Below, one piece after another: positions 1-10,261 of a DNA stretch of 64,000 nucleotides; positions within the stretch are counted from its first letter, which is position 1; every line of letters starts with the position of its first letter. The notes beneath the pieces are model-generated. The model saw only the letters and a program-made list of their open reading frames with translations. It was not told the DNA's origin and did not search any database. Position numbers and translations under genes: made by a program. This stretch comes from Actinomycetota bacterium (GTDB lineage Bacteria > Actinomycetota > Actinomycetes > Mycobacteriales > SCTD01), in NCBI GenBank assembly GCA_033851845.1, contig JAWWOH010000036.1, forward strand, positions 3,945 through 67,944, written 5' to 3'.

Positions 1-2885
1 TTGAGGCGGAAGACCGGCGCCGCGGGGAGTCCGCGCCCGAGCAGCGAGAAGGTGCCGCCGTTCGTGCCGGGCGCCCAGTAGACGCCGAGGTCGTTGGCGA
101 CGACGAGCCCGCCGTTCCACGGGAACGCGTCGTCGGCGCCGATGTCGGGGAGGTTCCCGGAGATGTCCTTGAACGTCGCGCCGGCGTCGGTCGACTTGAA
201 CAGGTGACCCCTGCCGATCTTGGCGACGCTGTCACCCAGCGACCCCGGCGGGATCCACCGGCGCCCGTAGCCGCCGAGCGTCACGTAGACCGTGCGGGGG
301 TTTGCCGGGTCGATGCGGACCGAGTTGATGTAGCGCTCGGGCAGGCCCTTGGCCGCGGCGATGTGCCAGCCGTTCGAGGTCATCCGCTTCGGCGCCTTGG
401 CACCACCGACGTTCGTCGCGATGCCGCTCTGGAAGGGCACGCCCTGCGTCACGATGTCGCAGAAGCCGCAGTAGCCGACGTACGTCGCATCGCCGCGGGT
501 GTCGACCGCCGACTCCGAGTTGTTGACCTCCGTGCTGCTCGGGTCGGCCGTGCCGAAGGCACCGGGGATCCGGCCGGCGTTCTCGTCACCGGGGTGCTGC
601 GCGGTGCCGAGGTCGAACACCTTCTTCCACGTGTTGCTGATCGTGGGGTCGGGGTCGGGCTGGTTGATGTTGGGCTTCTCGCCGTTCGTCGGGCCCGTCG
701 TGTTCTGGCCGTAGATCGTCTCGGCGACCTCACGGCCCGCGATCACGAGGTGCTTGGCGTTCGTCGCGTCCATCACGAACGGCGTCGCGAACAGCGCGGA
801 CGTCAGGCCGGGGTTGATGTCGATCCAGCTCTTGCCGCCGGTCGTGGTCACGCGGATGTCGCCGGCGACGTACTCCTCGTACCAGACGGACTCCTTGTCC
901 GGGTCGATCGCGACGAAGAAGCCGTCGCCGCCATACGCCATGATCTGCTTGCCCTCGGGCGTGATGACGGCGGAGCCGTTGTCCTGCAGGCCCTCGACGA
1001 CGGTGCCGTCGCGCGACATGGCAGCGTCGTACGGCAGCAGGTCGTGGAAGCCGTTGTTGATGCCGTTGCCCCAGCTGTCGTTGTTGAGCGCCTGGCCCGG
1101 AGCGAGCTTCTGCTTGTAGGCACCGCCGTCGTTGCCGACGATCAGCGTGACACCGCCGGTCCGGCGGTCCGGCACCCACAGACCGGCGTGCTGGTCGGGG
1201 TGGGTCGTCGAGCTCTGCGGCTTCGTCGGGTCCGAGTTGAACGGGCAGTAGCCCTGCGTCGCGGGGACGGTGAGGCCACCGCACGCGGTGCCGGCGAAGT
1301 ACTTGCCGACGACCTTGTACTGCCCGGTGTTGGGTGCCGGCGGCAGCGCGCCGGGGCCGCTCCACACCTCTTCGAGGCCGAAGGCGATCCGGCCCGGGAC
1401 GCCGCTCTCGTCCTGCGTCGTCGGGTCGGGGCGGATCCACTCGTTGTACCAAGACTGGATGCCCGGCGCGTAGGTCGCGCCCTGCACGCCCTCGAGCGCG
1501 CTGCCGGTGCCGGGGGCGGCGAGGTTGGCGGCGTCGGCGAGCTTGGTCCAGGTCGTGCCGAAGTCGCTGGAGCCGTAGATCCCGTTGAGCACGGTGTTCT
1601 GGAGTACGGCGGAGCCCGGGGTCTTGCCGCCCGTCGCGTCCGGCAGGTCGAGGCTGGTCGCCCCTTTGTTGAACTTCTGCGCGTCCTGGACGACGGCGTA
1701 GACGTAATTGTGGTTCTGCCGCAGGCCGACGGCGACGCCGAGCGCGGTGCGGCCGACGTTGGCCTGCGGCGCGAAGCCGGCCGGGGCGGGGTTGAACGCG
1801 AAGGTCCCCGGGGCGCCGGTCTTCGAGTAGTAGAGGCCGTTGCGCGGCGCTTGCGGCTTGCCGACGGCGTTCGGCTTCTGGCCGGCCCGCCAGCCGACGG
1901 CGGCGAGCACGCCGCCCCCGTTCGCCCCGTTGCGGTCGGAGGGGCGTACGACGACGTCGGTCACCATGTTGGCGAAGAAGCAGAGCGGGTTGGTGGTGCT
2001 CGTGCAGCCGGTGGGAAGGACGACGTTGCGGAAGGTGCGACCCGCGTCCGCGGAGCGGTAGAGGCCCTTGCTGGTGGCGGCGTAGACGACCGACGGCTTC
2101 GCCGGGTCGTGGCTGAAGGAGAAGGACAGCGTCCCGGCCGGCACGCCCGACGACTTGTGCCAGCTGGTCCCGTTGTCGTTGCTCCAGAAGACGCCGAGGC
2201 CGGCGAACGACGAGCCGCCGAAGGCCGGGTCGCCCGTGCCCACGAGCACGGTCGGCGTGCCCTGGTGGGTGAGCAGGTAGTCGATCGCTCCGGTGATCTG
2301 CGTCGGCAGCTTGTCGGCCATCGAGCGCCAGCTGCTGCCACCGTCGTTGGTGACCCACACACCGCCGTTGGCGACAGCGGCGAAGAAGTGGTCGGACACC
2401 GCCGGGTCGTAGGCCAGGTCCTCGATGCGCCCGGACAGCTGGTGCAGGCCGAGCCCGTTGGTGCGCGTGTAGCCCGTCACGTCGGAGTTCAGCGGGCCCT
2501 TGCCGACCGGGATCCACGACGACGTCGACCAGGCAGCCGTCGTGCGCGACAGCGCCTGGTGCTGCGCGATGGCCGCCTCATAGGCCCCCGGCAGCGTCAG
2601 CGGGTGACCTCCGTTGCTCCGCGTCGCCAGGGCCGCGTGCATCGCCATGACCTCGGCCGGTGACTCCGGGCCGGGCGGGCGACACGAGCTGCCGGCGCCG
2701 GCGGCGAAGTCGACGAGGTCCGCGTCCGCGGAGCGCAGGGTCCCCGGCGGGCAGGAGGCGGCACTCGTTGCCGCGGTCGTCGATGTGGTCGCTGCCGTTC
2801 CGGTGGACAGCGCGCCGCCGGTCGACGCGGCCAGCAGCGCCGCCGCAGCGAGCGCGAGCGGCAGGGAAAGGGTGCGACGACGCAC
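1..2885 (-). CDS. Large secreted Asp-box/BNR (VPS10/sortilin-like) beta-propeller protein, putative glycosyl hydrolase; 3' end runs off the window
   Basis: Absent from the ORF track because it has no stop in the window. Manual translation from GTG at 2885 (GGAGG RBS upstream) gives signal peptide MRRRTLSLPLALAAAALLAAS, Asp-boxes (TNDGGSSW, SNDNGTSW, SADAGRTF, SSDFGTTW, STDAGATF) and motifs HPDQH, VGNDGG, GLQDNG, DISGNLP. Confidence 0.85.
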   Translation of the reverse strand, partial: MRRRTLSLPLALAAAALLAASTGGALSTGTAATTSTTAATSAASCPPGTLRSADADLVDFAAGAGSSCRPPGPESPAEVMAMHAALATRSNGGHPLTLPGAYEAAIAQHQALSRTTAAWSTSSWIPVGKGPLNSDVTGYTRTNGLGLHQLSGRIEDLAYDPAVSDHFFAAVANGGVWVTNDGGSSWRSMADKLPTQITGAIDYLLTHQGTPTVLVGTGDPAFGGSSFAGLGVFWSNDNGTSWHKSSGVPAGTLSFSFSHDPAKPSVVYAATSKGLYRSADAGRTFRNVVLPTGCTSTTNPLCFFANMVTDVVVRPSDRNGANGGGVLAAVGWRAGQKPNAVGKPQAPRNGLYYSKTGAPGTFAFNPAPAGFAPQANVGRTALGVAVGLRQNHNYVYAVVQDAQKFNKGATSLDLPDATGGKTPGSAVLQNTVLNGIYGSSDFGTTWTKLADAANLAAPGTGSALEGVQGATYAPGIQSWYNEWIRPDPTTQDESGVPGRIAFGLEEVWSGPGALPPAPNTGQYKVVGKYFAGTACGGLTVPATQGYCPFNSDPTKPQSSTTHPDQHAGLWVPDRRTGGVTLIVGNDGGAYKQKLAPGQALNNDSWGNGINNGFHDLLPYDAAMSRDGTVVEGLQDNGSAVITPEGKQIMAYGGDGFFVAIDPDKESVWYEEYVAGDIRVTTTGGKSWIDINPGLTSALFATPFVMDATNAKHLVIAGREVAETIYGQNTTGPTNGEKPNINQPDPDPTISNTWKKVFDLGTAQHPGDENAGRIPGAFGTADPSSTEVNNSESAVDTRGDATYVGYCGFCDIVTQGVPFQSGIATNVGGAKAPKRMTSNGWHIAAAKGLPERYINSVRIDPANPRTVYVTLGGYGRRWIPPGSLGDSVAKIGRGHLFKSTDAGATFKDISGNLPDIGADDAFPWNGGLVVANDLGVYWAPGTNGGTFSLLGRGLPAAPVFRL

Positions 2886-3021
2886 GGGTCCTCCGGGGTC
2901 AGCGGGGCGGCACGGTGATGCGCCCGACGTGGCCATCTTGACCTGCGCGAGCCGCGATGTCGGGATAACGATGCAGCCGGGTCGAATCGTCCCGACTTGT
3001 GACATGATTGCGACGCCCCGG

Positions 3022-3037
3022 TGTGCCATGCGTCACA
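3022..3037. promoter_or_regulatory. CRP/GlxR-like site TGTGC-N6-TCACA
   Basis: 9/10 match to TGTGA-N6-TCACA in the divergent intergenic region, just upstream of the putative -35 at 3057. Confidence 0.4.
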
Positions 3038-3056
3038 CTGTCACCCGGGTGGATCG

Positions 3057-3082
3057 GCAGGTCCGCTCCCGAATCCGGCGAA
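3057..3082 (+). promoter_or_regulatory. Putative alternative-sigma promoter GCAGG-N16-GCGAA upstream of the ftsH-like operon
   Basis: Same bipartite motif and 16-nt spacer recur at 41610-41635, 46523-46548 and 50182-50207. Confidence 0.55.
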
Positions 3083-3184
3083 CCTTTCGACCCAGCACCC
3101 ACTCTCAGAGCTCAGGCCCCCGGCACACCGGTGTTGGTCGATCCCAGCACGACGAGGCCGGTCATCCCGGCGAGGAGGAAACCC

Positions 3185-5329
3185 GTGGCACAGGCTGGCG
3201 GCCAGCGGACCGGCACGGGGTCCGGCGAACCCACCGGGTTCGTCGACAAGGTCCGGGCCCGCATCCACGCGGCGCGACGCAAGCGGGCGGCGACGAAGGG
3301 CCCCGGCGGCAAGGGCCTGCTCTTCACGCTGATCGCGACGCTCGTCGTCCTGGTGGTGTTCTTCCTGACCTCGCTGGCGATCCTGTTCGGCAACCCTGAG
3401 GGCAAGAAGATCTCGGTCTCCCAGCTGGCGGCGCTCGCCTCGGCCGGCCGCGTCGACACGGCGACGTTCCTCGACGAGGACAGCCAGGTCGTCGCGAAGA
3501 TCCGCAGCATCTCCGACGCCACGGCGAAGGCTGCGGCGGACAAGACCGCGCCGGTCGCGGCGACCAACCCGCACGTCGACGGCGTTTCCGACGACGCGGT
3601 GACCGTGCGGTCGGCGTACCCCAACAACGGCTCGACGACCAACTCGACCATCCAGCTGCTGCAGACCTCCGGCGCCAAGGTGAGCGTCGACCCGCAGGCC
3701 GGTCAGGCGCGGCTGCGGATCTTCACCGAGTTCCTGCTGCCGGTTCTGATCCTGGCCAACCTGTTCGGCCTGCTCTTCGTCGGCAAGGGCAGCGGCGGCG
3801 GTGCCATCGGCGAGGTCACCAACTTCGGCCGCGTCGACGACGGCAGCCGCACGGACGGCAACAACGTCACGTTCGCCGACGTCGGCGGCGCCGACGAGGC
3901 GGTCACGGAGCTGGCGGAGGTCCGCGACTACCTGCGCAACCCGGAGAAGTACAGGGCGCTCGGCGCCGCTCCGCCCAAGGGCGTGCTGCTGTTCGGCCCT
4001 CCTGGCACAGGCAAGACGCTGCTCGCCCGCGCCGTCGCCGGCGAGGCCGGCGTGCCCTTCTTCTCGGTCGCCGGTGCGGAGTTCGTCGAGTCGCTCGTGG
4101 GTGTCGGCGCGGCCCGCATCCGCGACCTGTTCCGCCGGGTCCGCGCCGTCGCACCCGCCATCGTCTTCATCGACGAGCTGGACGCCGCCGGCCGCAAGCG
4201 CGGCAGCGGCGGAGGCGGCGGCGGCTCGGACGAGCGCGAGCAGACCCTCAACCAGCTGCTCGTCGAGATGGACGGCTTCGAGACGACCAGCGGCATCGTC
4301 GTCATCGCCGCGACCAACCGCCCCGACATCCTCGACCCCGCCCTGATGCGCCCCGGCCGCTTCGACCGGCACATCACCGTCGAGCGGCCCGACGCGGAGG
4401 GACGCGAGCGCATCCTCAAGATCCATGCGGCGCGCAAGCCGATGAGCTCCGACGTCGACCTCAACCGCATCGCCGCGCGCACGCCCGGCTTCACCGGTGC
4501 CGACCTCGCCAGCGTCGTCAACGAGTCTGCGCTGCTGACCATCCGCCGCAAGGGCAACACGATCACCATGAAGGAGTTCGAGGAGGCGGTGATCCGCGTC
4601 CTCGAGGGTCCGCAGCGCCGCGGTCAGGTGCTCACCGAGGAGGAGCGCCGTCGCGCGGCGTACCACGAGATCGGGCACGTCGTCGTCGCCGCGACTCTCG
4701 GTCGGCACGAGGACGTGCACCGGGTGACCGTGCTCGGCCGCGGCCGCACGCTCGCCGCTGCGACCTTCGCCGACAAGGAGGCGACGCTGCTCACCCGCAG
4801 CGCGCTGCACACCCAGCTGGTCGCGACCCTGGGTGGCATCGCCGCCGAGGAGCTTGTCTTCGGCGAGGGCTCGACGGGCGGCGAGCAGGACCTCGAGCAC
4901 GCCACCGACCTGGCCCGGGACATGGTGACCAAGTACGGCATGTCCGACGAGGTCGGTCCGGTCCGCCTGCAGGTCAAGGCCGGCGAGGGCTTCCTCGGTG
5001 ACGACTCGTCGCTCGTCGACCTCTCCCCCGAGACGCAGCGCGACGTCGAGGACGCGGTGCGCGGGATGATCACGGCCGCGCAGCGTCAGGCCACGAAGAT
5101 CCTGCAGTCGCACCGGCGCGAGCTCGACACGCTCGCCGTCCGGCTGGACGAGGAGGAGACCCTCGAGGACGACGTCCTGCAGGAGGCCCTCGCGCCGCTG
5201 CTGACCGCGATCGAGTCCAAGAGCAACGTTAGCCCGCAGACGACGACCCGCCGACCGAAGGCGGCGAAGGCCGCTGCCGCTGCCGGCGTCAACGGAACGA
5301 CGCGCGCCCGGGCGGCGGCGAAGTCCTGA
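3185..5329 (+). CDS. ftsH: ATP-dependent zinc metalloprotease FtsH (divergent paralog)
   Basis: Two N-terminal TM helices, Walker A GPPGTGKT, Walker [36 protein letters not shown] zinc motif; GTG at 3185 follows AGGAGG (ORF track start 3008). Confidence 0.92.
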
Positions 5330-5331
5330 GG

Positions 5332-8016
5332 ATGTCGACCCTGCGTTGGCGCGCGATGCTCGCCGGCGCCACCCTGCTGGTAGCGGTGGTGCCCGCGGTG
5401 TCGTTTGCCGTGTCCCCGCCACTGACCTGCCGCACGGCGAGCGGCGTGCTGTGGCAGAAGATCGCCGTCGAGGCGTTCCGCCAGGTTCCTGGCGTGACGA
5501 CGACGGACAAGATCACGTCGTACGCCGTCGATGCGCAGCATCCCGGCACGGTGGTGGTCACGAACGGCACGACGATCAAGCGCAGCACGCACGCCGGCTG
5601 CGACTGGTCCGACGCGTTCTCGCTCGGGCTGCAGCCGTCCGCGGACGTGCCGCTGTCCGGTCAGACCGCGAAAATCACCGCGATGACCGTCATCAACGGT
5701 CGCGTGCTGGCGGCGGTGCGCGAAGGCACCGGACCGGCGAGCCGGCCGCACGTCGTCGGCAGCGACAGCGGACGGCCGGGCACCTACGCCGCCTCCGACA
5801 GCGGCTTGCCGCCGCAGGGTGCACCGAAGCTGCTTCGCTCGGCGTACGACGGCCGCACGGTCTACCTCGCGCTGTCACCTGTCTCCAACGACGAGGGACC
5901 CGTCGGGACGGGCGGCATCCCGAGCCTTCCGCCGGTGGACAACCCCACGACCGGCGGTGAGAACGGCCTGCTCTACGCGTCGACGGACGGTGGGCACAGC
6001 TGGTCGCTGCGGACCTCCGCCACCGACCTGCCCGCCGGTGCCGGCGTCGACCAGCTCTCGGTCGACCACGGCAACGCGAACCTGCTCTACGCGACCTCGA
6101 ACGGACTGCTGTACGTCTCTCACGACGGTGGCTCGTCATTCACCCGCGCACGGGTCAACAACGAGGACGTCACCGCGGTCGAGGCCATGGCGCCGGGCCA
6201 GGTCATCGTGTTCACCCGAAGCGGCGTCGTGCTGACCAGCACGGACGGGGGGAACCGGTTCAACGGGACCCGCAGCATCGCGGGTGTGACGTCCGCGGCG
6301 TACCGCGCCGGCGACAGCCACGTCGCCGTTGAAGCCAACGGAAGCCTGTCGGTCATCGACCCGCGGACGGGTTTCGCCTCCGTGTCCGGCGGGCCCTCTG
6401 CGACCCGCGGCAGCCTGTCCGGCGACGTCGCGCCCCAGTCGACGTTCCACGGGCTCTCCGGCCATGCGCTGCTCCGGTTCGCCGACCCGCCGCCGCCCCA
6501 TCAGACGGAGACACCGGTCAGCGTCGACGACCTCGGCGTGCCGCCGCCGCCGCCGGGACGCATCACGCCCGGCGCGCGCACCGTCCAGCTCAAGGTCGGG
6601 ACGTCAGGCGTCTACGACTACACGCTGGCGATGCCGAAGAGCCCGACCCCGCTCGACCTGTTCTTCCTCATCGACACGTCCGGCTCGATGTCGGGCTACA
6701 TCGACAACCTCAAGGCCAACATCAGCAAGGTCACCCATGCGGTGCAGGGCGCCGGCATCAACCTCGAGGTCGGTGTCGGGACCCTCGGCACGGGCGCGCG
6801 CCCCGGCGAGGTCGTGCCGCCGTACGTCAATCCCAAGGATCCCAGCGACCGCGGCTCGAAGCTCTACGCGCTCTTCCGGCGCATCGGCCCCGTCGACTCT
6901 GACTTCGCCCGCGCGCTGGCCAGCGTGCAGGTGAAGAACCAGGGCGGCAACAACCCCGCCGAGGGTCAGCTGGCCGCGTTGCAGCAGGCCACCTGGGGAC
7001 CGGGCATCAAGGACCCGAACACCCCGCTGTGGCTGGTCGACCCTGGTCAGGACGCCGGCTGGCGGGCCGCCCCCGGCGTACGACGGATCATCGTGCACGC
7101 AACCGACGAAGCGTTCGACAAGCCGGCCGGATCACCGGTGAAGCCCAACGGCGACCTCGACTACGACACCGTCATCCGCCAGATGAACGCCTACCGCGTC
7201 CAGCAGATCGGCATCACGACCGGCGCCATCGAGTCACGCGACGACCTGGCCCGGATCGCCCGAGCGACCCACACGCTCGCGCCGCTCGGCGGCTCCGACT
7301 GCGGTGAGGGCGAGATCCTGCCGGCCGGGTCACCGCTCGTCTGCGACACCGAGGGAGACTTCAGCGCAATCATCGGGCGCCTGGTCAAGAGCCTGCAGGA
7401 CCACGCCGACGTCAGCCTCTCGGCGCGCGGCAGCTTCGGCCGAGTCATCCGCGGCCTGGACGCCAGTCACCTGCAGGGCGTCGACGTGACCAGGCCGAAC
7501 GCGCTGCCGTTCAAGGTCGCCGTCACGTGTGTGGGCCTGTCGCCGGGGACCTATCACGAGGACCTGACGGCCAGCCTGCGCGGCGTGCGAATCGCGACGA
7601 GCAAGCTCACCGTCTCCTGCCTCGGCCCTGTCGCGGCCGCCCGGCTGATCCCGCCGGTCACCCCGGCGGTCGCGCCGGCGCCGCCACCCCCCGCGCCGGT
7701 CGCGGTCGTCCCTGTCCCGCCGGCGGCACAGCCGCAAGCCGCTCCGCAGACGCAGCCGCAGGCCCAGGTCAACCCCGTGACGGCCGCGGCCTTGCAGCGC
7801 CAGCAGCAGCTGCAGCTGGCGCTCGCCCTGCAGGCCGGCCTGGAGATCCCGGACGACGACGACGAGGTCCAGCTCGCGATGGTCGGCCACCGACGCCAGG
7901 ACGAGTCCGCCGCACTGACGCTCCTCGCGACGGCGATCCTCGCCTCGTCGGCGTTCGGCCTGGCCCGGCTGCGGTCCCGGCCGGAGCCCAGCGTGGTCCG
8001 CAACCGGGTGCGCTGA
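5332..8016 (+). CDS. Secreted, C-terminally anchored protein: Asp-box beta-propeller + vWA (integrin-beta I-like) domain + Pro/Gln-rich stalk + TM helix
   Basis: Signal peptide; Asp-boxes STDGGHSW, SHDGGSSF, STDGGNRF; MIDAS DTSGS; C-terminal hydrophobic helix followed by Arg-rich tail; starts 2 nt after the ftsH stop. Confidence 0.85.
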   Translation: MSTLRWRAMLAGATLLVAVVPAVSFAVSPPLTCRTASGVLWQKIAVEAFRQVPGVTTTDKITSYAVDAQHPGTVVVTNGTTIKRSTHAGCDWSDAFSLGLQPSADVPLSGQTAKITAMTVINGRVLAAVREGTGPASRPHVVGSDSGRPGTYAASDSGLPPQGAPKLLRSAYDGRTVYLALSPVSNDEGPVGTGGIPSLPPVDNPTTGGENGLLYASTDGGHSWSLRTSATDLPAGAGVDQLSVDHGNANLLYATSNGLLYVSHDGGSSFTRARVNNEDVTAVEAMAPGQVIVFTRSGVVLTSTDGGNRFNGTRSIAGVTSAAYRAGDSHVAVEANGSLSVIDPRTGFASVSGGPSATRGSLSGDVAPQSTFHGLSGHALLRFADPPPPHQTETPVSVDDLGVPPPPPGRITPGARTVQLKVGTSGVYDYTLAMPKSPTPLDLFFLIDTSGSMSGYIDNLKANISKVTHAVQGAGINLEVGVGTLGTGARPGEVVPPYVNPKDPSDRGSKLYALFRRIGPVDSDFARALASVQVKNQGGNNPAEGQLAALQQATWGPGIKDPNTPLWLVDPGQDAGWRAAPGVRRIIVHATDEAFDKPAGSPVKPNGDLDYDTVIRQMNAYRVQQIGITTGAIESRDDLARIARATHTLAPLGGSDCGEGEILPAGSPLVCDTEGDFSAIIGRLVKSLQDHADVSLSARGSFGRVIRGLDASHLQGVDVTRPNALPFKVAVTCVGLSPGTYHEDLTASLRGVRIATSKLTVSCLGPVAAARLIPPVTPAVAPAPPPPAPVAVVPVPPAAQPQAAPQTQPQAQVNPVTAAALQRQQQLQLALALQAGLEIPDDDDEVQLAMVGHRRQDESAALTLLATAILASSAFGLARLRSRPEPSVVRNRVR

Positions 8017-8116
8017 GCCCGGACGTGACCGGCGGCACCCGCCCCGCCGCGACGGCATCGGGCTGAGCGAGGGTAGTAAGGACGGAAGCCGTCCCTTCGC
8101 CAGCCTGGAGCAGTCC

Positions 8117-10261
8117 GTGACCGAGCCCGAGCCGAGCAGTTCCGTGGTCAGCAGCGTCTGGCCGGGCTCGGCGTACCCGCTCGGGGCGACGTACGACGGC
8201 AGCGGGACGAACTTCGGGCTGTTCTCGGAGGTGGCGGAGCGGGTCGAGCTGTGCCTGTTCGACGAGGCGGGCAACGAGACCCGGGTGGACCTGACGGAGC
8301 GCGACGCGTTCGTCTGGCACGGGTACCTGCCGAACATCGGGCCGGGGCAGCGCTACGGGTTCCGGGTGCACGGCCCGTACGACCCGGAGCAGGGCCATCG
8401 CTGCAACCCGACCAAGCTGCTGCTCGATCCCTACGCGAAGGCGGTCGACGGGCAGATCGACTGGGGCCAGGCCTGCTTCTCCTACACCTGGGGCGACGAG
8501 GACTCCTTCAACGACGAGGACTCCGCACCGCACATGAGCAAGTCGGTCGTCATCAGCCCGTTCTTCGACTGGGACAACGACCGGCACCCGCGTACGCCGT
8601 ACAGCGACACGGTCATCTACGAAGCGCACGTCAAGGGCCTGACGAAAACGCATCCCGCGATACCGGAGGAGATGCGCGGGACGTACGCCGCCGTCGCCCA
8701 CCCGGTGATGATCGAGCACTACAAGAAGCACGGCATCACCGCGATCGAGCTGATGCCGGTCCACCAGTTCGTCCACGACAGCCACCTGGTGGAGCGCGGA
8801 CAGCGCAACTACTGGGGTTACAACACGATCGGCTTCTTCGCGCCCCACAACGAGTACGCCGCCGCACGCTCTCCGGGACAGCAGGTCCAGGAGTTCAAGG
8901 CGATGGTCAAGGCGCTTCACGCCGAAGGTCTCGAGGTGATCCTCGACGTCGTCTACAACCACACCGCCGAGGGCAACCAGCTCGGTCCGACGCTGTCGTT
9001 CCGAGGCATCGACAACGCCAACTACTACCGGCTCGTCGACGAGGATCGCAAGCACTACTACGACACGACCGGCACCGGGAACACGCTGCTGATGCGCAGC
9101 CCCAACGTGCTTCAGATGATCATGGACTCGCTGCGGTACTGGGTGCTCGACATGCACGTCGACGGCTTCCGCTTCGACCTCGCGTCGTCACTGGCCCGCC
9201 AGTTCCACGAGGTCGACCGCCTCTCGGCGTTCTTCGACCTCGTACACCAGGACCCCGTGGTCAGCCAGACCAAGCTCATCGCGGAGCCGTGGGACATCGG
9301 GTACGACGGCTACAACGTCGGCGGCTTCCCGCCCCTCTGGACGGAGTGGAACGGCAAGTACCGCGACACGGTGCGGGACTTCTGGCGCGGCGAGCCGGCG
9401 ACCCTCGCGGAGTTCGCCTCGCGCCTCACTGGCTCGGCCGACCTGTACGAGGACGACGGGCGCCGACCGTTCGCTTCGATCAACTTCGTCACCGCTCACG
9501 ACGGGTTCACGATGCACGACCTCGTGTCCTACAACGAGAAGCACAACGAGGCCAACGGCGAGGGCGGGCAGGACGGCGAGAGCAACAACCGCTCGTGGAA
9601 CTGCGGGGTGGAGGGCGAGACGGACGACCTCGAGATCGTCGCGCTGCGCGAGCAGCAGAAGCGCAACTTCCTCGCGACGCTGTTCCTCTCGCAGGGGGTC
9701 CCGATGCTGGTGCACGGCGACGAGGTCGGCCGCACCCAGCACGGGAACAACAACGTCTACGCGCAGGACAACGACCTCGCGTGGGTCGACTGGGAACGCG
9801 CCAAGGACTTCGAGGTCCTCTCCGACTTCGTCAGCCGGCTGGCCAAGCTGCGTCAGGAGCATCCCGTGTTCCGCCGCCGCCGGCACTTCCAGGGGCACGT
9901 CGTGAAGGGCTCGGAGATCCACGACATCGGCTGGTTCACGCCGGACGGCGGATGGATGAACGAGGACGACTGGGAGTCGGGGTTCGCCAAGTCCGTCGCT
10001 GTCTTCCTGAACGGCGAGGGCATCCGGGAGCCGGACCTGCGCGGGGAGCGCATCGTGGACACGTCGTTCTTCCTGCTGTTCAACGGAAGCGATGGCCAGA
10101 TCGAGTTCACGCTGCCCGACATCGGTGCCGGCGAGCGCTGGGACGTGGCGCTCGACACCGCCGCGCCGATGCTCGTCGACGCGGAGAGCCGCTCGGTCAA
10201 GACCGGCGAGCCCGTCGAGGTGGATGCCAGATCAGTGCTCGTCGTGCAGAAGGTCTTCTGA
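8117..10261 (+). CDS. glgX: Glycogen debranching enzyme GlgX/TreX (GH13 isoamylase)
   Basis: WPGSAYPLGATYDG, NYWGYNT, DVVYNHTAEG, DGFRFDLA, IAEPWD, FVTAHDGFT. Confidence 0.96.
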   Translation: MTEPEPSSSVVSSVWPGSAYPLGATYDGSGTNFGLFSEVAERVELCLFDEAGNETRVDLTERDAFVWHGYLPNIGPGQRYGFRVHGPYDPEQGHRCNPTKLLLDPYAKAVDGQIDWGQACFSYTWGDEDSFNDEDSAPHMSKSVVISPFFDWDNDRHPRTPYSDTVIYEAHVKGLTKTHPAIPEEMRGTYAAVAHPVMIEHYKKHGITAIELMPVHQFVHDSHLVERGQRNYWGYNTIGFFAPHNEYAAARSPGQQVQEFKAMVKALHAEGLEVILDVVYNHTAEGNQLGPTLSFRGIDNANYYRLVDEDRKHYYDTTGTGNTLLMRSPNVLQMIMDSLRYWVLDMHVDGFRFDLASSLARQFHEVDRLSAFFDLVHQDPVVSQTKLIAEPWDIGYDGYNVGGFPPLWTEWNGKYRDTVRDFWRGEPATLAEFASRLTGSADLYEDDGRRPFASINFVTAHDGFTMHDLVSYNEKHNEANGEGGQDGESNNRSWNCGVEGETDDLEIVALREQQKRNFLATLFLSQGVPMLVHGDEVGRTQHGNNNVYAQDNDLAWVDWERAKDFEVLSDFVSRLAKLRQEHPVFRRRRHFQGHVVKGSEIHDIGWFTPDGGWMNEDDWESGFAKSVAVFLNGEGIREPDLRGERIVDTSFFLLFNGSDGQIEFTLPDIGAGERWDVALDTAAPMLVDAESRSVKTGEPVEVDARSVLVVQKVF

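Follow-up and report, generated by a model that had tools for sequence, protein, structure and literature searches.

A family of actinobacterial membrane proteins with an integrin-beta-headpiece-like core, frequently encoded beside an accessory FtsH

Does an actinobacterial gene lying 2 nt behind an ftsH gene encode a relative of the integrin beta headpiece and, if so, what might such a protein do beside a membrane protease? The question was raised by a 64,000-nucleotide stretch of DNA from an Actinomycetota bacterium (assembly GCA_033851845.1, contig JAWWOH010000036.1, positions 3,945 to 67,944 of the forward strand; hereafter the window), with a G+C content of about 70%. An uninterrupted open reading frame (ORF) at window positions 5332-8016 (+), starting with ATG, encodes a protein of 894 amino acids (aa), here called the receptor for short. 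A first-pass annotation, made from the sequence alone, had proposed a single-chain, integrin-headpiece-like surface protein in which a von Willebrand factor A (vWA) domain is inserted into a hybrid-like sandwich, behind a beta-propeller and ahead of a stalk and a membrane anchor. The motifs on which it relied, ITPGARTVQLKVG, PLDLFFLIDTSGSM, NPAEGQLAALQQA, GWRAAPGVRRIIVHATDEAF and LDYDTV, are all present in the translation and in the order claimed, and the beta-rich segment noticed after LDYDTV does contain cysteines, namely Cys657, Cys671, Cys733 and Cys763.

Searched singly, the receptor matched PF00362 in Pfam with an E-value of 2.4e-4 and 21.4-23.7 bits, just below the 24.8-bit cut-off, and integrin beta-8 in the PDB at E 0.07, both weak hints. 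A profile built from 30 full-length members of its family reached integrin beta-8, beta-1 and beta-3 at E 1e-9 to 1e-5. With a profile of 37 headpieces, excised from family members at genome loci, all 59 distinct PDB sequences matched at E<=0.01 belonged to integrin beta (best 2.4e-15); that search brought up no vWA protein of another kind. With integrin beta chains the sole matches of this profile, the likeness proposed by the first-pass annotation lies far beyond chance. More specifically, the profile alignment pairs with beta-8 the strand ahead of the vWA domain (family 'ltPa...v.LkaG', beta-8 VTPGEVSIQLRPG), the segment 'P(L/V)D(L/V)(F/Y)(F/Y)LvD.S.SM' that carries DxSxS, and the Glu of 'PEGG'. 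The GWR...TD segment is out of register in this alignment, and therefore its equivalence, including that of D592 to the metal-binding Asp of integrins, is taken from motif order and from the fold alignment. When the 37 members were scanned individually at E<=1e-3, PF00362 was matched by 30, vWA_SIBA-E by 16, VWA by 14 and VWA_4 by 12.

Structure prediction pointed in the same direction. A full-length AlphaFold2 model from a 91-sequence alignment had a mean predicted local distance difference test score (pLDDT) of 83 and a predicted template modelling score (pTM) of 0.77, the latter suggesting a defined arrangement of propeller and headpiece; a model of residues 400-775 from 116 sequences reached a pLDDT of 92.7 and a pTM of 0.90. 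In Foldseek searches, integrin beta accounted for 50 of the 50 matches listed both with the whole model (E 3e-16 to 3e-14) and with the headpiece model (E 2.4e-17 to 1.2e-15), over about 400 alignment columns each. Both fold searches with VIA were likewise headed by integrin beta, which gave the longest and tightest alignments, of 302-315 residues at a root-mean-square deviation (rmsd) of 3.8-5.6; identity in the structural alignments to integrin beta is about 13-18%. Positions 5-365 of the 400-775 model were aligned to integrin chain residues 72-432, the VIA alignments begin at model residue 5-8, and on the integrin side they extend to residues 432-445, where the hybrid domain ends. As had been proposed, the vWA domain is an insertion, with three strands of the sandwich before it (410-434) and five after it (694-764), and integrin headpieces align over both halves; what the searches returned is a split hybrid-like domain with integrin beta as its best relative rather than a generic vWA domain. 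We conclude that the head of the receptor is homologous to the core of the integrin beta headpiece, a vWA domain within a hybrid-like sandwich. As a side observation, the hybrid-like domain of the AlphaFold headpiece model (window 6529-7656, +) is set at an angle much closer to open or ligand-bound integrins (rmsd 3.8-5.6) than to closed ones (8.3-10).

We then considered which functional features of integrin beta are shared. Among the 37 headpieces, the positions of the MIDAS (metal ion-dependent adhesion site) are kept at D448 in 37, at S/T450 in 37, at S452 in 34, at E544 in 33 and at D592 in 35, and the Arg of GWR is kept in 37/37. As far as residue conservation can tell, the MIDAS is complete and conserved, which fits the earlier suggestion of a metal-dependent adhesin or receptor. 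The two positions after DxSxSM, which in most integrins hold the aspartates of the adjacent site (ADMIDAS), are G/Y in the receptor (455/456) and variable in the family (P/G/S/D and Y/V/F/A); integrin beta-8 likewise differs at both. At the synergistic or ligand-associated metal-binding site (SyMBS/LIMBS), E544 is conserved, and the residue aligned to the preceding Asp of beta-8 is Asp in 12/37. No Pfam match to PSI, I-EGF or beta-tail domains was obtained in the receptor at E<=0.1; its N-terminus is occupied by the propeller, and residues 766-853 are of low complexity and free of Cys. The C-terminal tail after the transmembrane (TM) helix, RLRSRPEPSVVRNRVR, contains no NPxY motif, and no FG-GAP match, of the kind expected for an integrin alpha-like propeller, was found in the source genome (88% complete). 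The receptor has the headpiece core in common with integrin beta but lacks several of the features that define an integrin beta subunit, and is therefore not one.

A second feature of the gene is its neighbour. The TGA stop of an accessory FtsH paralog, P0002, in which the Walker and HEIGH motifs are conserved, lies 2 nt ahead of the receptor ATG. Across 63 related loci from GTDB genomes, all Actinomycetota records, an FtsH lies directly upstream on the same strand in 32. Where the upstream flank measured at least 2.4 kb, 26/43 loci were FtsH-linked by script and 27/43 by inspection, with the addition of L053, which the script had overlooked because its protein has no propeller. Closer relatives (at least 32% identity, adequate flank) are linked in 21 of 22 cases, the exception (L052) being a short local match, and relatives of 24-29% identity from Acidimicrobiales, Conexibacter and unclassified Actinomycetota are still linked (L048, L049, L053, L054, L056, L058). 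In a quick maximum-likelihood IQ-TREE tree of headpieces with a midpoint root, FtsH-linked members fall into three well-supported clades on both sides of the root, and one 13-row clade has no linked member (9 unlinked, 4 with insufficient flank). The genes are also adjacent in reversed order, receptor first and then FtsH, in one family of sampled genomes (f17). In five sampled genomes, the distance from headpiece gene to an FtsH is no more than about 1.5 kb in 6/9 cases. The five genomes with the receptor family have 2-4 FtsH matches, whereas five without it have one full-length FtsH each, a comparison of a small sample of related genomes and not a statistical test.

The source genome itself encodes three accessory FtsH proteins, and behind each of their genes, in the same orientation, comes one for a protein built from signal peptide, BNR propeller, Pro-rich stalk and TM anchor; the partner P0250 of the second FtsH has the integrin-like head. 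A fourth copy, the housekeeping ftsH, is divided between the ends of two contigs and has the usual tilS-hpt-ftsH...folP-DUF3180 context. Gene order thus reveals a tight and widely conserved two-gene unit of the receptor and an accessory FtsH paralog that is predicted to be catalytically intact. Among the unlinked paralogs, 11 loci with 28 neighbouring ORFs yielded no common alternative partner (TsaD, enoyl-CoA hydratase, YgjP-like, RNase T, GAF-SpoIIE and others). A predicted complex of FtsH residues 95-270 with receptor residues 805-894 scored 0.00 against a mark of 0.32 with controls not run, which is not evidence either way.

The propeller in front of the head is of the Asp-box rather than the FG-GAP type, as had been anticipated: the model has seven blades, the Asp-box motifs STDGGHSW, SHDGGSSF and STDGGNRF lie at residues ~217-310, and for residues ~210-400 the family profile found the best relatives in Ycf48/HCF136, GH74 xyloglucanases and the Streptomyces dispase autolysis-inducing protein (DAIP), at E 1e-11 to 1e-10. 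Pfam gave weak PSII_BNR and Sortilin-Vps10 matches in this region, and the best fold matches were all tied generic seven-bladed propellers. Propeller-less short forms of about 550 aa were also observed directly beside FtsH (L053:6839-8218, from an Acidimicrobiales metagenome-assembled genome (MAG); G070 C21; G010 C30). Because such forms exist, a propeller cannot be a required half of a 'headpiece'.

Behind the head, the foreseen Pro/Gln stalk and TM anchor were recovered as a Pro/Gln stretch at ~766-815 and a hydrophobic helix at 854-880, and a comparable stalk was seen in 33/33 complete tails examined. By the logic of its sequence, the receptor is a type-I membrane protein, its head extracytoplasmic and its anchor C-terminal. 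Conserved cysteines are paired by position (C33/C90, C657/C671, C733/C763), which suggests disulfides, consistent with an extracytoplasmic location. Between stalk and helix, conservation among 91 sequences is high (Q822 in 90/91, A830 and A832 in 91/91 each, M850 in 87/91). Over the 33 related tails, the C-terminal module runs from PQ/NP repeats through an 'A.QEQ.QxQLA(L/F)A' helix, an acidic stretch and '(L/Y)AM(S/V)' to about 10 charged residues, the TM helix and a tail rich in Arg. This has the appearance of an anchoring or sorting-type signal common to the family. Neither LPXTG nor an NCBIfam sorting-domain match was found in this module of the receptor or of the 33 tails, and a sortase-anchored pilus-tip vWA adhesin of the SpaC/PitA type was rejected as a candidate, the C-terminal LPXTG-type signal being absent. 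The juxtamembrane module was also considered as a trait specific to FtsH linkage and rejected, being present in linked and unlinked paralogs.

Considering head, anchor and neighbour together, we favour, with a probability of roughly 55%, an integrin-beta-headpiece-like receptor of an uncultured soil actinobacterium (Frankiales/Mycobacteriales-like) that works with its cognate FtsH. The Pro/Gln stalk holds off the membrane a head composed of the Asp-box propeller and then the integrin-beta-like core. By analogy with integrins and other vWA adhesins, a divalent cation in the MIDAS would bind an acidic group on a ligand outside the cell, which might be a protein or a polymer of the envelope, and the propeller may contribute another surface for binding. 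The receptor would then be the extracytoplasmic partner of FtsH that recognises ligands or substrates (an adaptor), or a sensor gating proteolysis, and binding could be transmitted from the alpha7 helix through the hybrid domain and the stalk to the TM helix, as in integrins. It would work like an integrin beta headpiece, yet not as an integrin subunit. A bolder version, which we consider rather unlikely, sees in it a single-chain counterpart of the integrin headpiece in prokaryotes, with propeller, hybrid and betaI domains, in which a ligand-driven movement of the hybrid domain is relayed by stalk and TM helix to an FtsH paralog reserved for it, a receptor-protease device of the 'outside-in' kind in bacteria; if this were true, the integrin beta headpiece module would have arisen in bacteria before its acquisition by eukaryotes.

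Three observations weigh against a strict dependence on FtsH: 16/43 loci with enough flank have no FtsH neighbour, the 'QLALAL...LAM' juxtamembrane module does not differ between FtsH-linked and unlinked members, and the third FtsH partner of the source genome, P0249, has a BNR propeller with a different middle region and no vWA domain. The unlinked loci, the 13-row clade among them, place the gene amid unrelated housekeeping genes while the head is the same and its MIDAS intact, as would be the case for a stand-alone metal-dependent adhesin or matrix-binding protein, whose FtsH neighbour would reflect nothing more than shared transcription, or how a large membrane protein is made and turned over, and no functional receptor-protease pair. 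Previous descriptions of integrin-beta-like proteins from bacteria treat them as adhesins, for example CglD in the accessible text of its preprint (bioRxiv 10.1101/2023.10.19.562135). On the other side, an adhesin does not account for an FtsH adjacency that survives to 24-29% identity, spans three clades and occurs in either gene order, for three paralogous FtsH-partner pairs in one genome, or for extra FtsH copies confined to those sampled genomes that have the receptor family; we hold an adhesin possible, with the odds against it. The same pairing with accessory FtsH paralogs, and the partner that keeps propeller, stalk and TM anchor without a vWA domain, would also suit a periplasm-side modulator or substrate of FtsH, its head being a bulky regulatory or degradation-signalling domain. 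HflK/HflC, extracytoplasmic/membrane partners of FtsH, provide the model for such a role; no SPFH domain was found in the receptor by Pfam scan. All five MIDAS positions are strongly conserved, which points to selection on ligand or metal binding, and the long Pro-rich stalk is predicted to put the head far from the small FtsH ectodomain, so that we find a modulator or substrate quite unlikely.

Two further explanations concern the nature of the head and of the propeller rather than the FtsH partner. A generic bacterial vWA domain flanked by a convergent beta-sandwich, with a superficial likeness to integrins, is very improbable, given PDB profile matches to integrin beta alone with the pre-vWA strand included, PF00362 as the commonest Pfam match of the members, and the lead of integrin beta in both Foldseek searches and in the VIA alignments. 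Some database names ('exo-alpha-sialidase'), the Asp-box repeats and a partial match to the NCBIfam 'F510_1955 family glycosylhydrolase' would speak for a glycoside hydrolase or sialidase. That match is confined to residues 211-323 and scores 42.5 bits where 175 are required, the Pfam scan of the receptor brought no catalytic family of sialidases or of GH74 above its cut-off, there is one propeller here as opposed to two in GH74 enzymes, and the best propeller fold matches are the tied generic ones; we rejected this reading as barely credible. Should the pairing be functional, the preferred reading, a receptor working with its FtsH, would make the unit an example, open to experiment, of a membrane AAA+ protease coupled to an extracytoplasmic integrin-like receptor.

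The features of the receptor and of its FtsH neighbour are collected in Table 1.

Table 1. Positions of the annotated features in the window, with the basis of each assignment.
Feature	Window position (nt)	Strand	Basis
Accessory FtsH paralog (P0002): two TM helices, FtsH_ext, AAA, M41 peptidase with HEIGH	3008..5329	+	Pfam: Peptidase_M41 5.6e-47, AAA 3.5e-46, FtsH_ext 1e-5
Signal peptide, residues 1-26 (...AVSFA|VS)	5332..5409	+	Sequence; model helix 4-19 at low pLDDT; N-terminal pattern kept in homolog alignment; predicted cleavage site
Seven-bladed Asp-box (BNR) beta-propeller, residues ~38-388, conserved Cys33-Cys90 pair	5443..6495	+	
Pro-rich linker from propeller to headpiece, residues 389-409	6496..6558	+	Sequence; pLDDT 74-85
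N-terminal part of hybrid-like beta-sandwich, residues 410-437, three strands	6559..6642	+	DSSP strands 410-412, 415-421, 425-434; hidden Markov model alignment to integrin beta-8 pre-betaI strand
BetaI-like vWA domain, residues 438-690	6643..7401	+	PF00362 in 30/37 family members; residue conservation; fold matches
MIDAS D448-x-S450-x-S452	6673-6687	+	Within vWA domain
MIDAS E544	6961-6963	+	Within vWA domain
MIDAS D592	7105-7107	+	Within vWA domain
GWR motif (R578) and Cys657-Cys671 pair	within vWA domain, residues 438-690	+	
C-terminal part of hybrid-like beta-sandwich, residues 691-765, five strands, Cys733-Cys763 pair	7402..7626	+	DSSP strands 694-764; integrin beta fold alignment
Pro/Ala/Gln-rich stalk, residues 766-815, predicted disordered	7627..7776	+	Sequence; pLDDT <60
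Juxtamembrane module: helix 'TAAAxQxQxxLQLALAL' (816-835), acidic stretch, 'LAMV' motif (849-851)	7777..7890	+	Family conservation
TM helix (854-880), basic cytoplasmic tail (881-894), stop codon	7891..8016	+	Model helix 854-881; sequence

A scan of window positions 2800-8300 for promoters and terminators gave nothing exceeding shuffled expectation. Upstream of the FtsH gene, and divergent from it, window positions 3-3029 (-) encode a secreted protein (P0251) of at least 1009 aa that runs off the window start and has GH74/sortilin-like Asp-box repeats (Sortilin-Vps10 1.6e-12); a gene of this type is kept beside the FtsH-receptor pair in L003, L005, L012 and L013. As is common in DNA of 70% G+C, long shadow ORFs lie opposite real genes, and one of them, at 204-2663 (+), is an 819-aa Arg/Ala/Gly-rich nonsense translation over this minus-strand gene. 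Downstream of the receptor, 8117-10261 (+) encodes a GlgX-type glycogen debranching enzyme (CBM_48, alpha-amylase, Isoamylase_C), which is conserved in this place in many of the closer related loci, probably as plain synteny. The further FtsH-partner pairs of the source genome lie on contigs C126 (L073:4573-9711, -) and C91 (L074:3410-8162, -), with a TgpA-like transglutaminase upstream of the former and a subtilase of family S8 downstream of the latter. In a listing of sequencing runs, the stretch was present in soil-metagenome DNA runs, with no RNA run among them.

The family is large. A word-indexed search returned 99 near-length homologs with identities down to 27%, the named ones nearly all from Frankiales, Mycobacteriales or Actinomycetota MAGs, under names as inconsistent as 'hypothetical', 'vWA domain-containing', 'exo-alpha-sialidase' and 'Integrin beta chain domain'; a precomputed PF00362 hit was attached to 28/99. 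An exhaustive HMMER search with residues 400-770 collected 532 clusters (50% identity) at E<=1e-3 and 354 at <=1e-10. The architecture is conserved, because most of the 150 clusters listed share a length of 850-950 aa with the matched part at ~400-780; short forms of ~500 aa occur too. Members of ten distant cluster representatives were named 'hypothetical' or 'vWA domain-containing [Mycobacteriales]' exclusively. In a sample of 301 Actinomycetota genomes, whose tallies include three flagged as unpublished (G001, G048, G226), a headpiece match at E<=1e-10 was found in 21. These genomes cluster in few families (f9 with 11/20, f17 with 5/21, f15 with 2/12) and are small, at 2.3-3.3 Mb; no headpiece match was found in the sampled large-genome relatives.

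These data enlarge the bacterial side of the integrin record. The integrin-origin literature, in the portions accessible, cites essentially one bacterial integrin-beta homolog, which is cyanobacterial, plus CglD. A large actinobacterial family is now documented that has the whole hybrid and betaI core, an intact MIDAS, a propeller fusion and a genetic pairing with an accessory FtsH. In the full-text literature, a scope that leaves aside subscription journals and supplements, we found no description of this family, of the propeller fusion or of an operon of FtsH and an integrin-like protein. With its many new sequences, the family can help to trace the origin of the integrin headpiece, and database names such as 'exo-alpha-sialidase' can be corrected.

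How does the receptor compare with systems already known? Integrin-beta-like sequences on record in bacteria are a cyanobacterial protein of Trichodesmium (PMC3192720, PMC2651865) and CglD of Myxococcus xanthus, which matches the betaI region of beta-3 (bioRxiv 10.1101/2023.10.19.562135). As described in the accessible text of these sources, they resemble the receptor in being bacterial and in having a vWA region that matches integrin beta over generic vWA, and they differ in carrying a RicinB lectin or TSP3/EGF-like repeats, CglD being an outer-membrane lipoprotein; neither has an Asp-box propeller or such a type-I anchor, and the same text reports no FtsH partner for them. In the ESM Atlas, PF00362 clusters from Cyanobacteriota, Myxococcota and Pseudomonadota have models that align over receptor residues ~400-775; these are leads only, and their spread over several phyla implies that the module is widespread in bacteria. 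Among eukaryotes, the Dictyostelium proteins SibA-E (vWA_SIBA-E, PF24909) share with the receptor a membrane-anchored, adhesion-type organisation with an integrin-beta-like vWA domain, and 16/37 family members match their profile. SibA differs, according to the part of PMC2651865 available, in being eukaryotic, in its bacterial-like repeats and talin-binding tail, and in having no propeller.

With respect to the propeller, Ycf48/HCF136, the GH74 xyloglucanases and DAIP have the same number of blades, yet they are stand-alone or double propellers, unlike the single one fused here to an integrin-like head. The closest parallel to the gene pair is provided by the FtsH-vWA-MoxR ternary conflict systems, in which FtsH is coupled to a vWA protein that in some cases has a beta-propeller (Kaur et al. 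2020, PMC7159879). The likeness, an FtsH-type protease genetically coupled to a vWA partner, stops there: in the accessible text of that article, a MoxR ATPase is indispensable to the ternary systems, whose FtsH carries a pair of AAA domains with an inactive N-terminal member. We rejected this reading for the present locus, where the FtsH is a canonical TM-AAA-M41 protein with one AAA domain and the flanks hold a BNR protein and GlgX, not MoxR.

Compared with integrin beta chains themselves, the receptor has no PSI, I-EGF or beta-tail domains and no NPxY, and its specificity-loop region is shorter, integrins having extra residues there in the profile alignment. Its Asp-box propeller is fused in the same chain, whereas an integrin beta chain pairs with a separate FG-GAP alpha subunit. 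What it shares with the headpieces of beta-8, beta-1 and beta-3 in the PDB is a vWA domain set in a beta-sandwich, the order strand-DxSxS-Glu-(GWR)-TD and a complete MIDAS, and with beta-8, an 'atypical integrin' in the title of its PDB entry, it also has in common the missing acidic ADMIDAS pair after DxSxSM.

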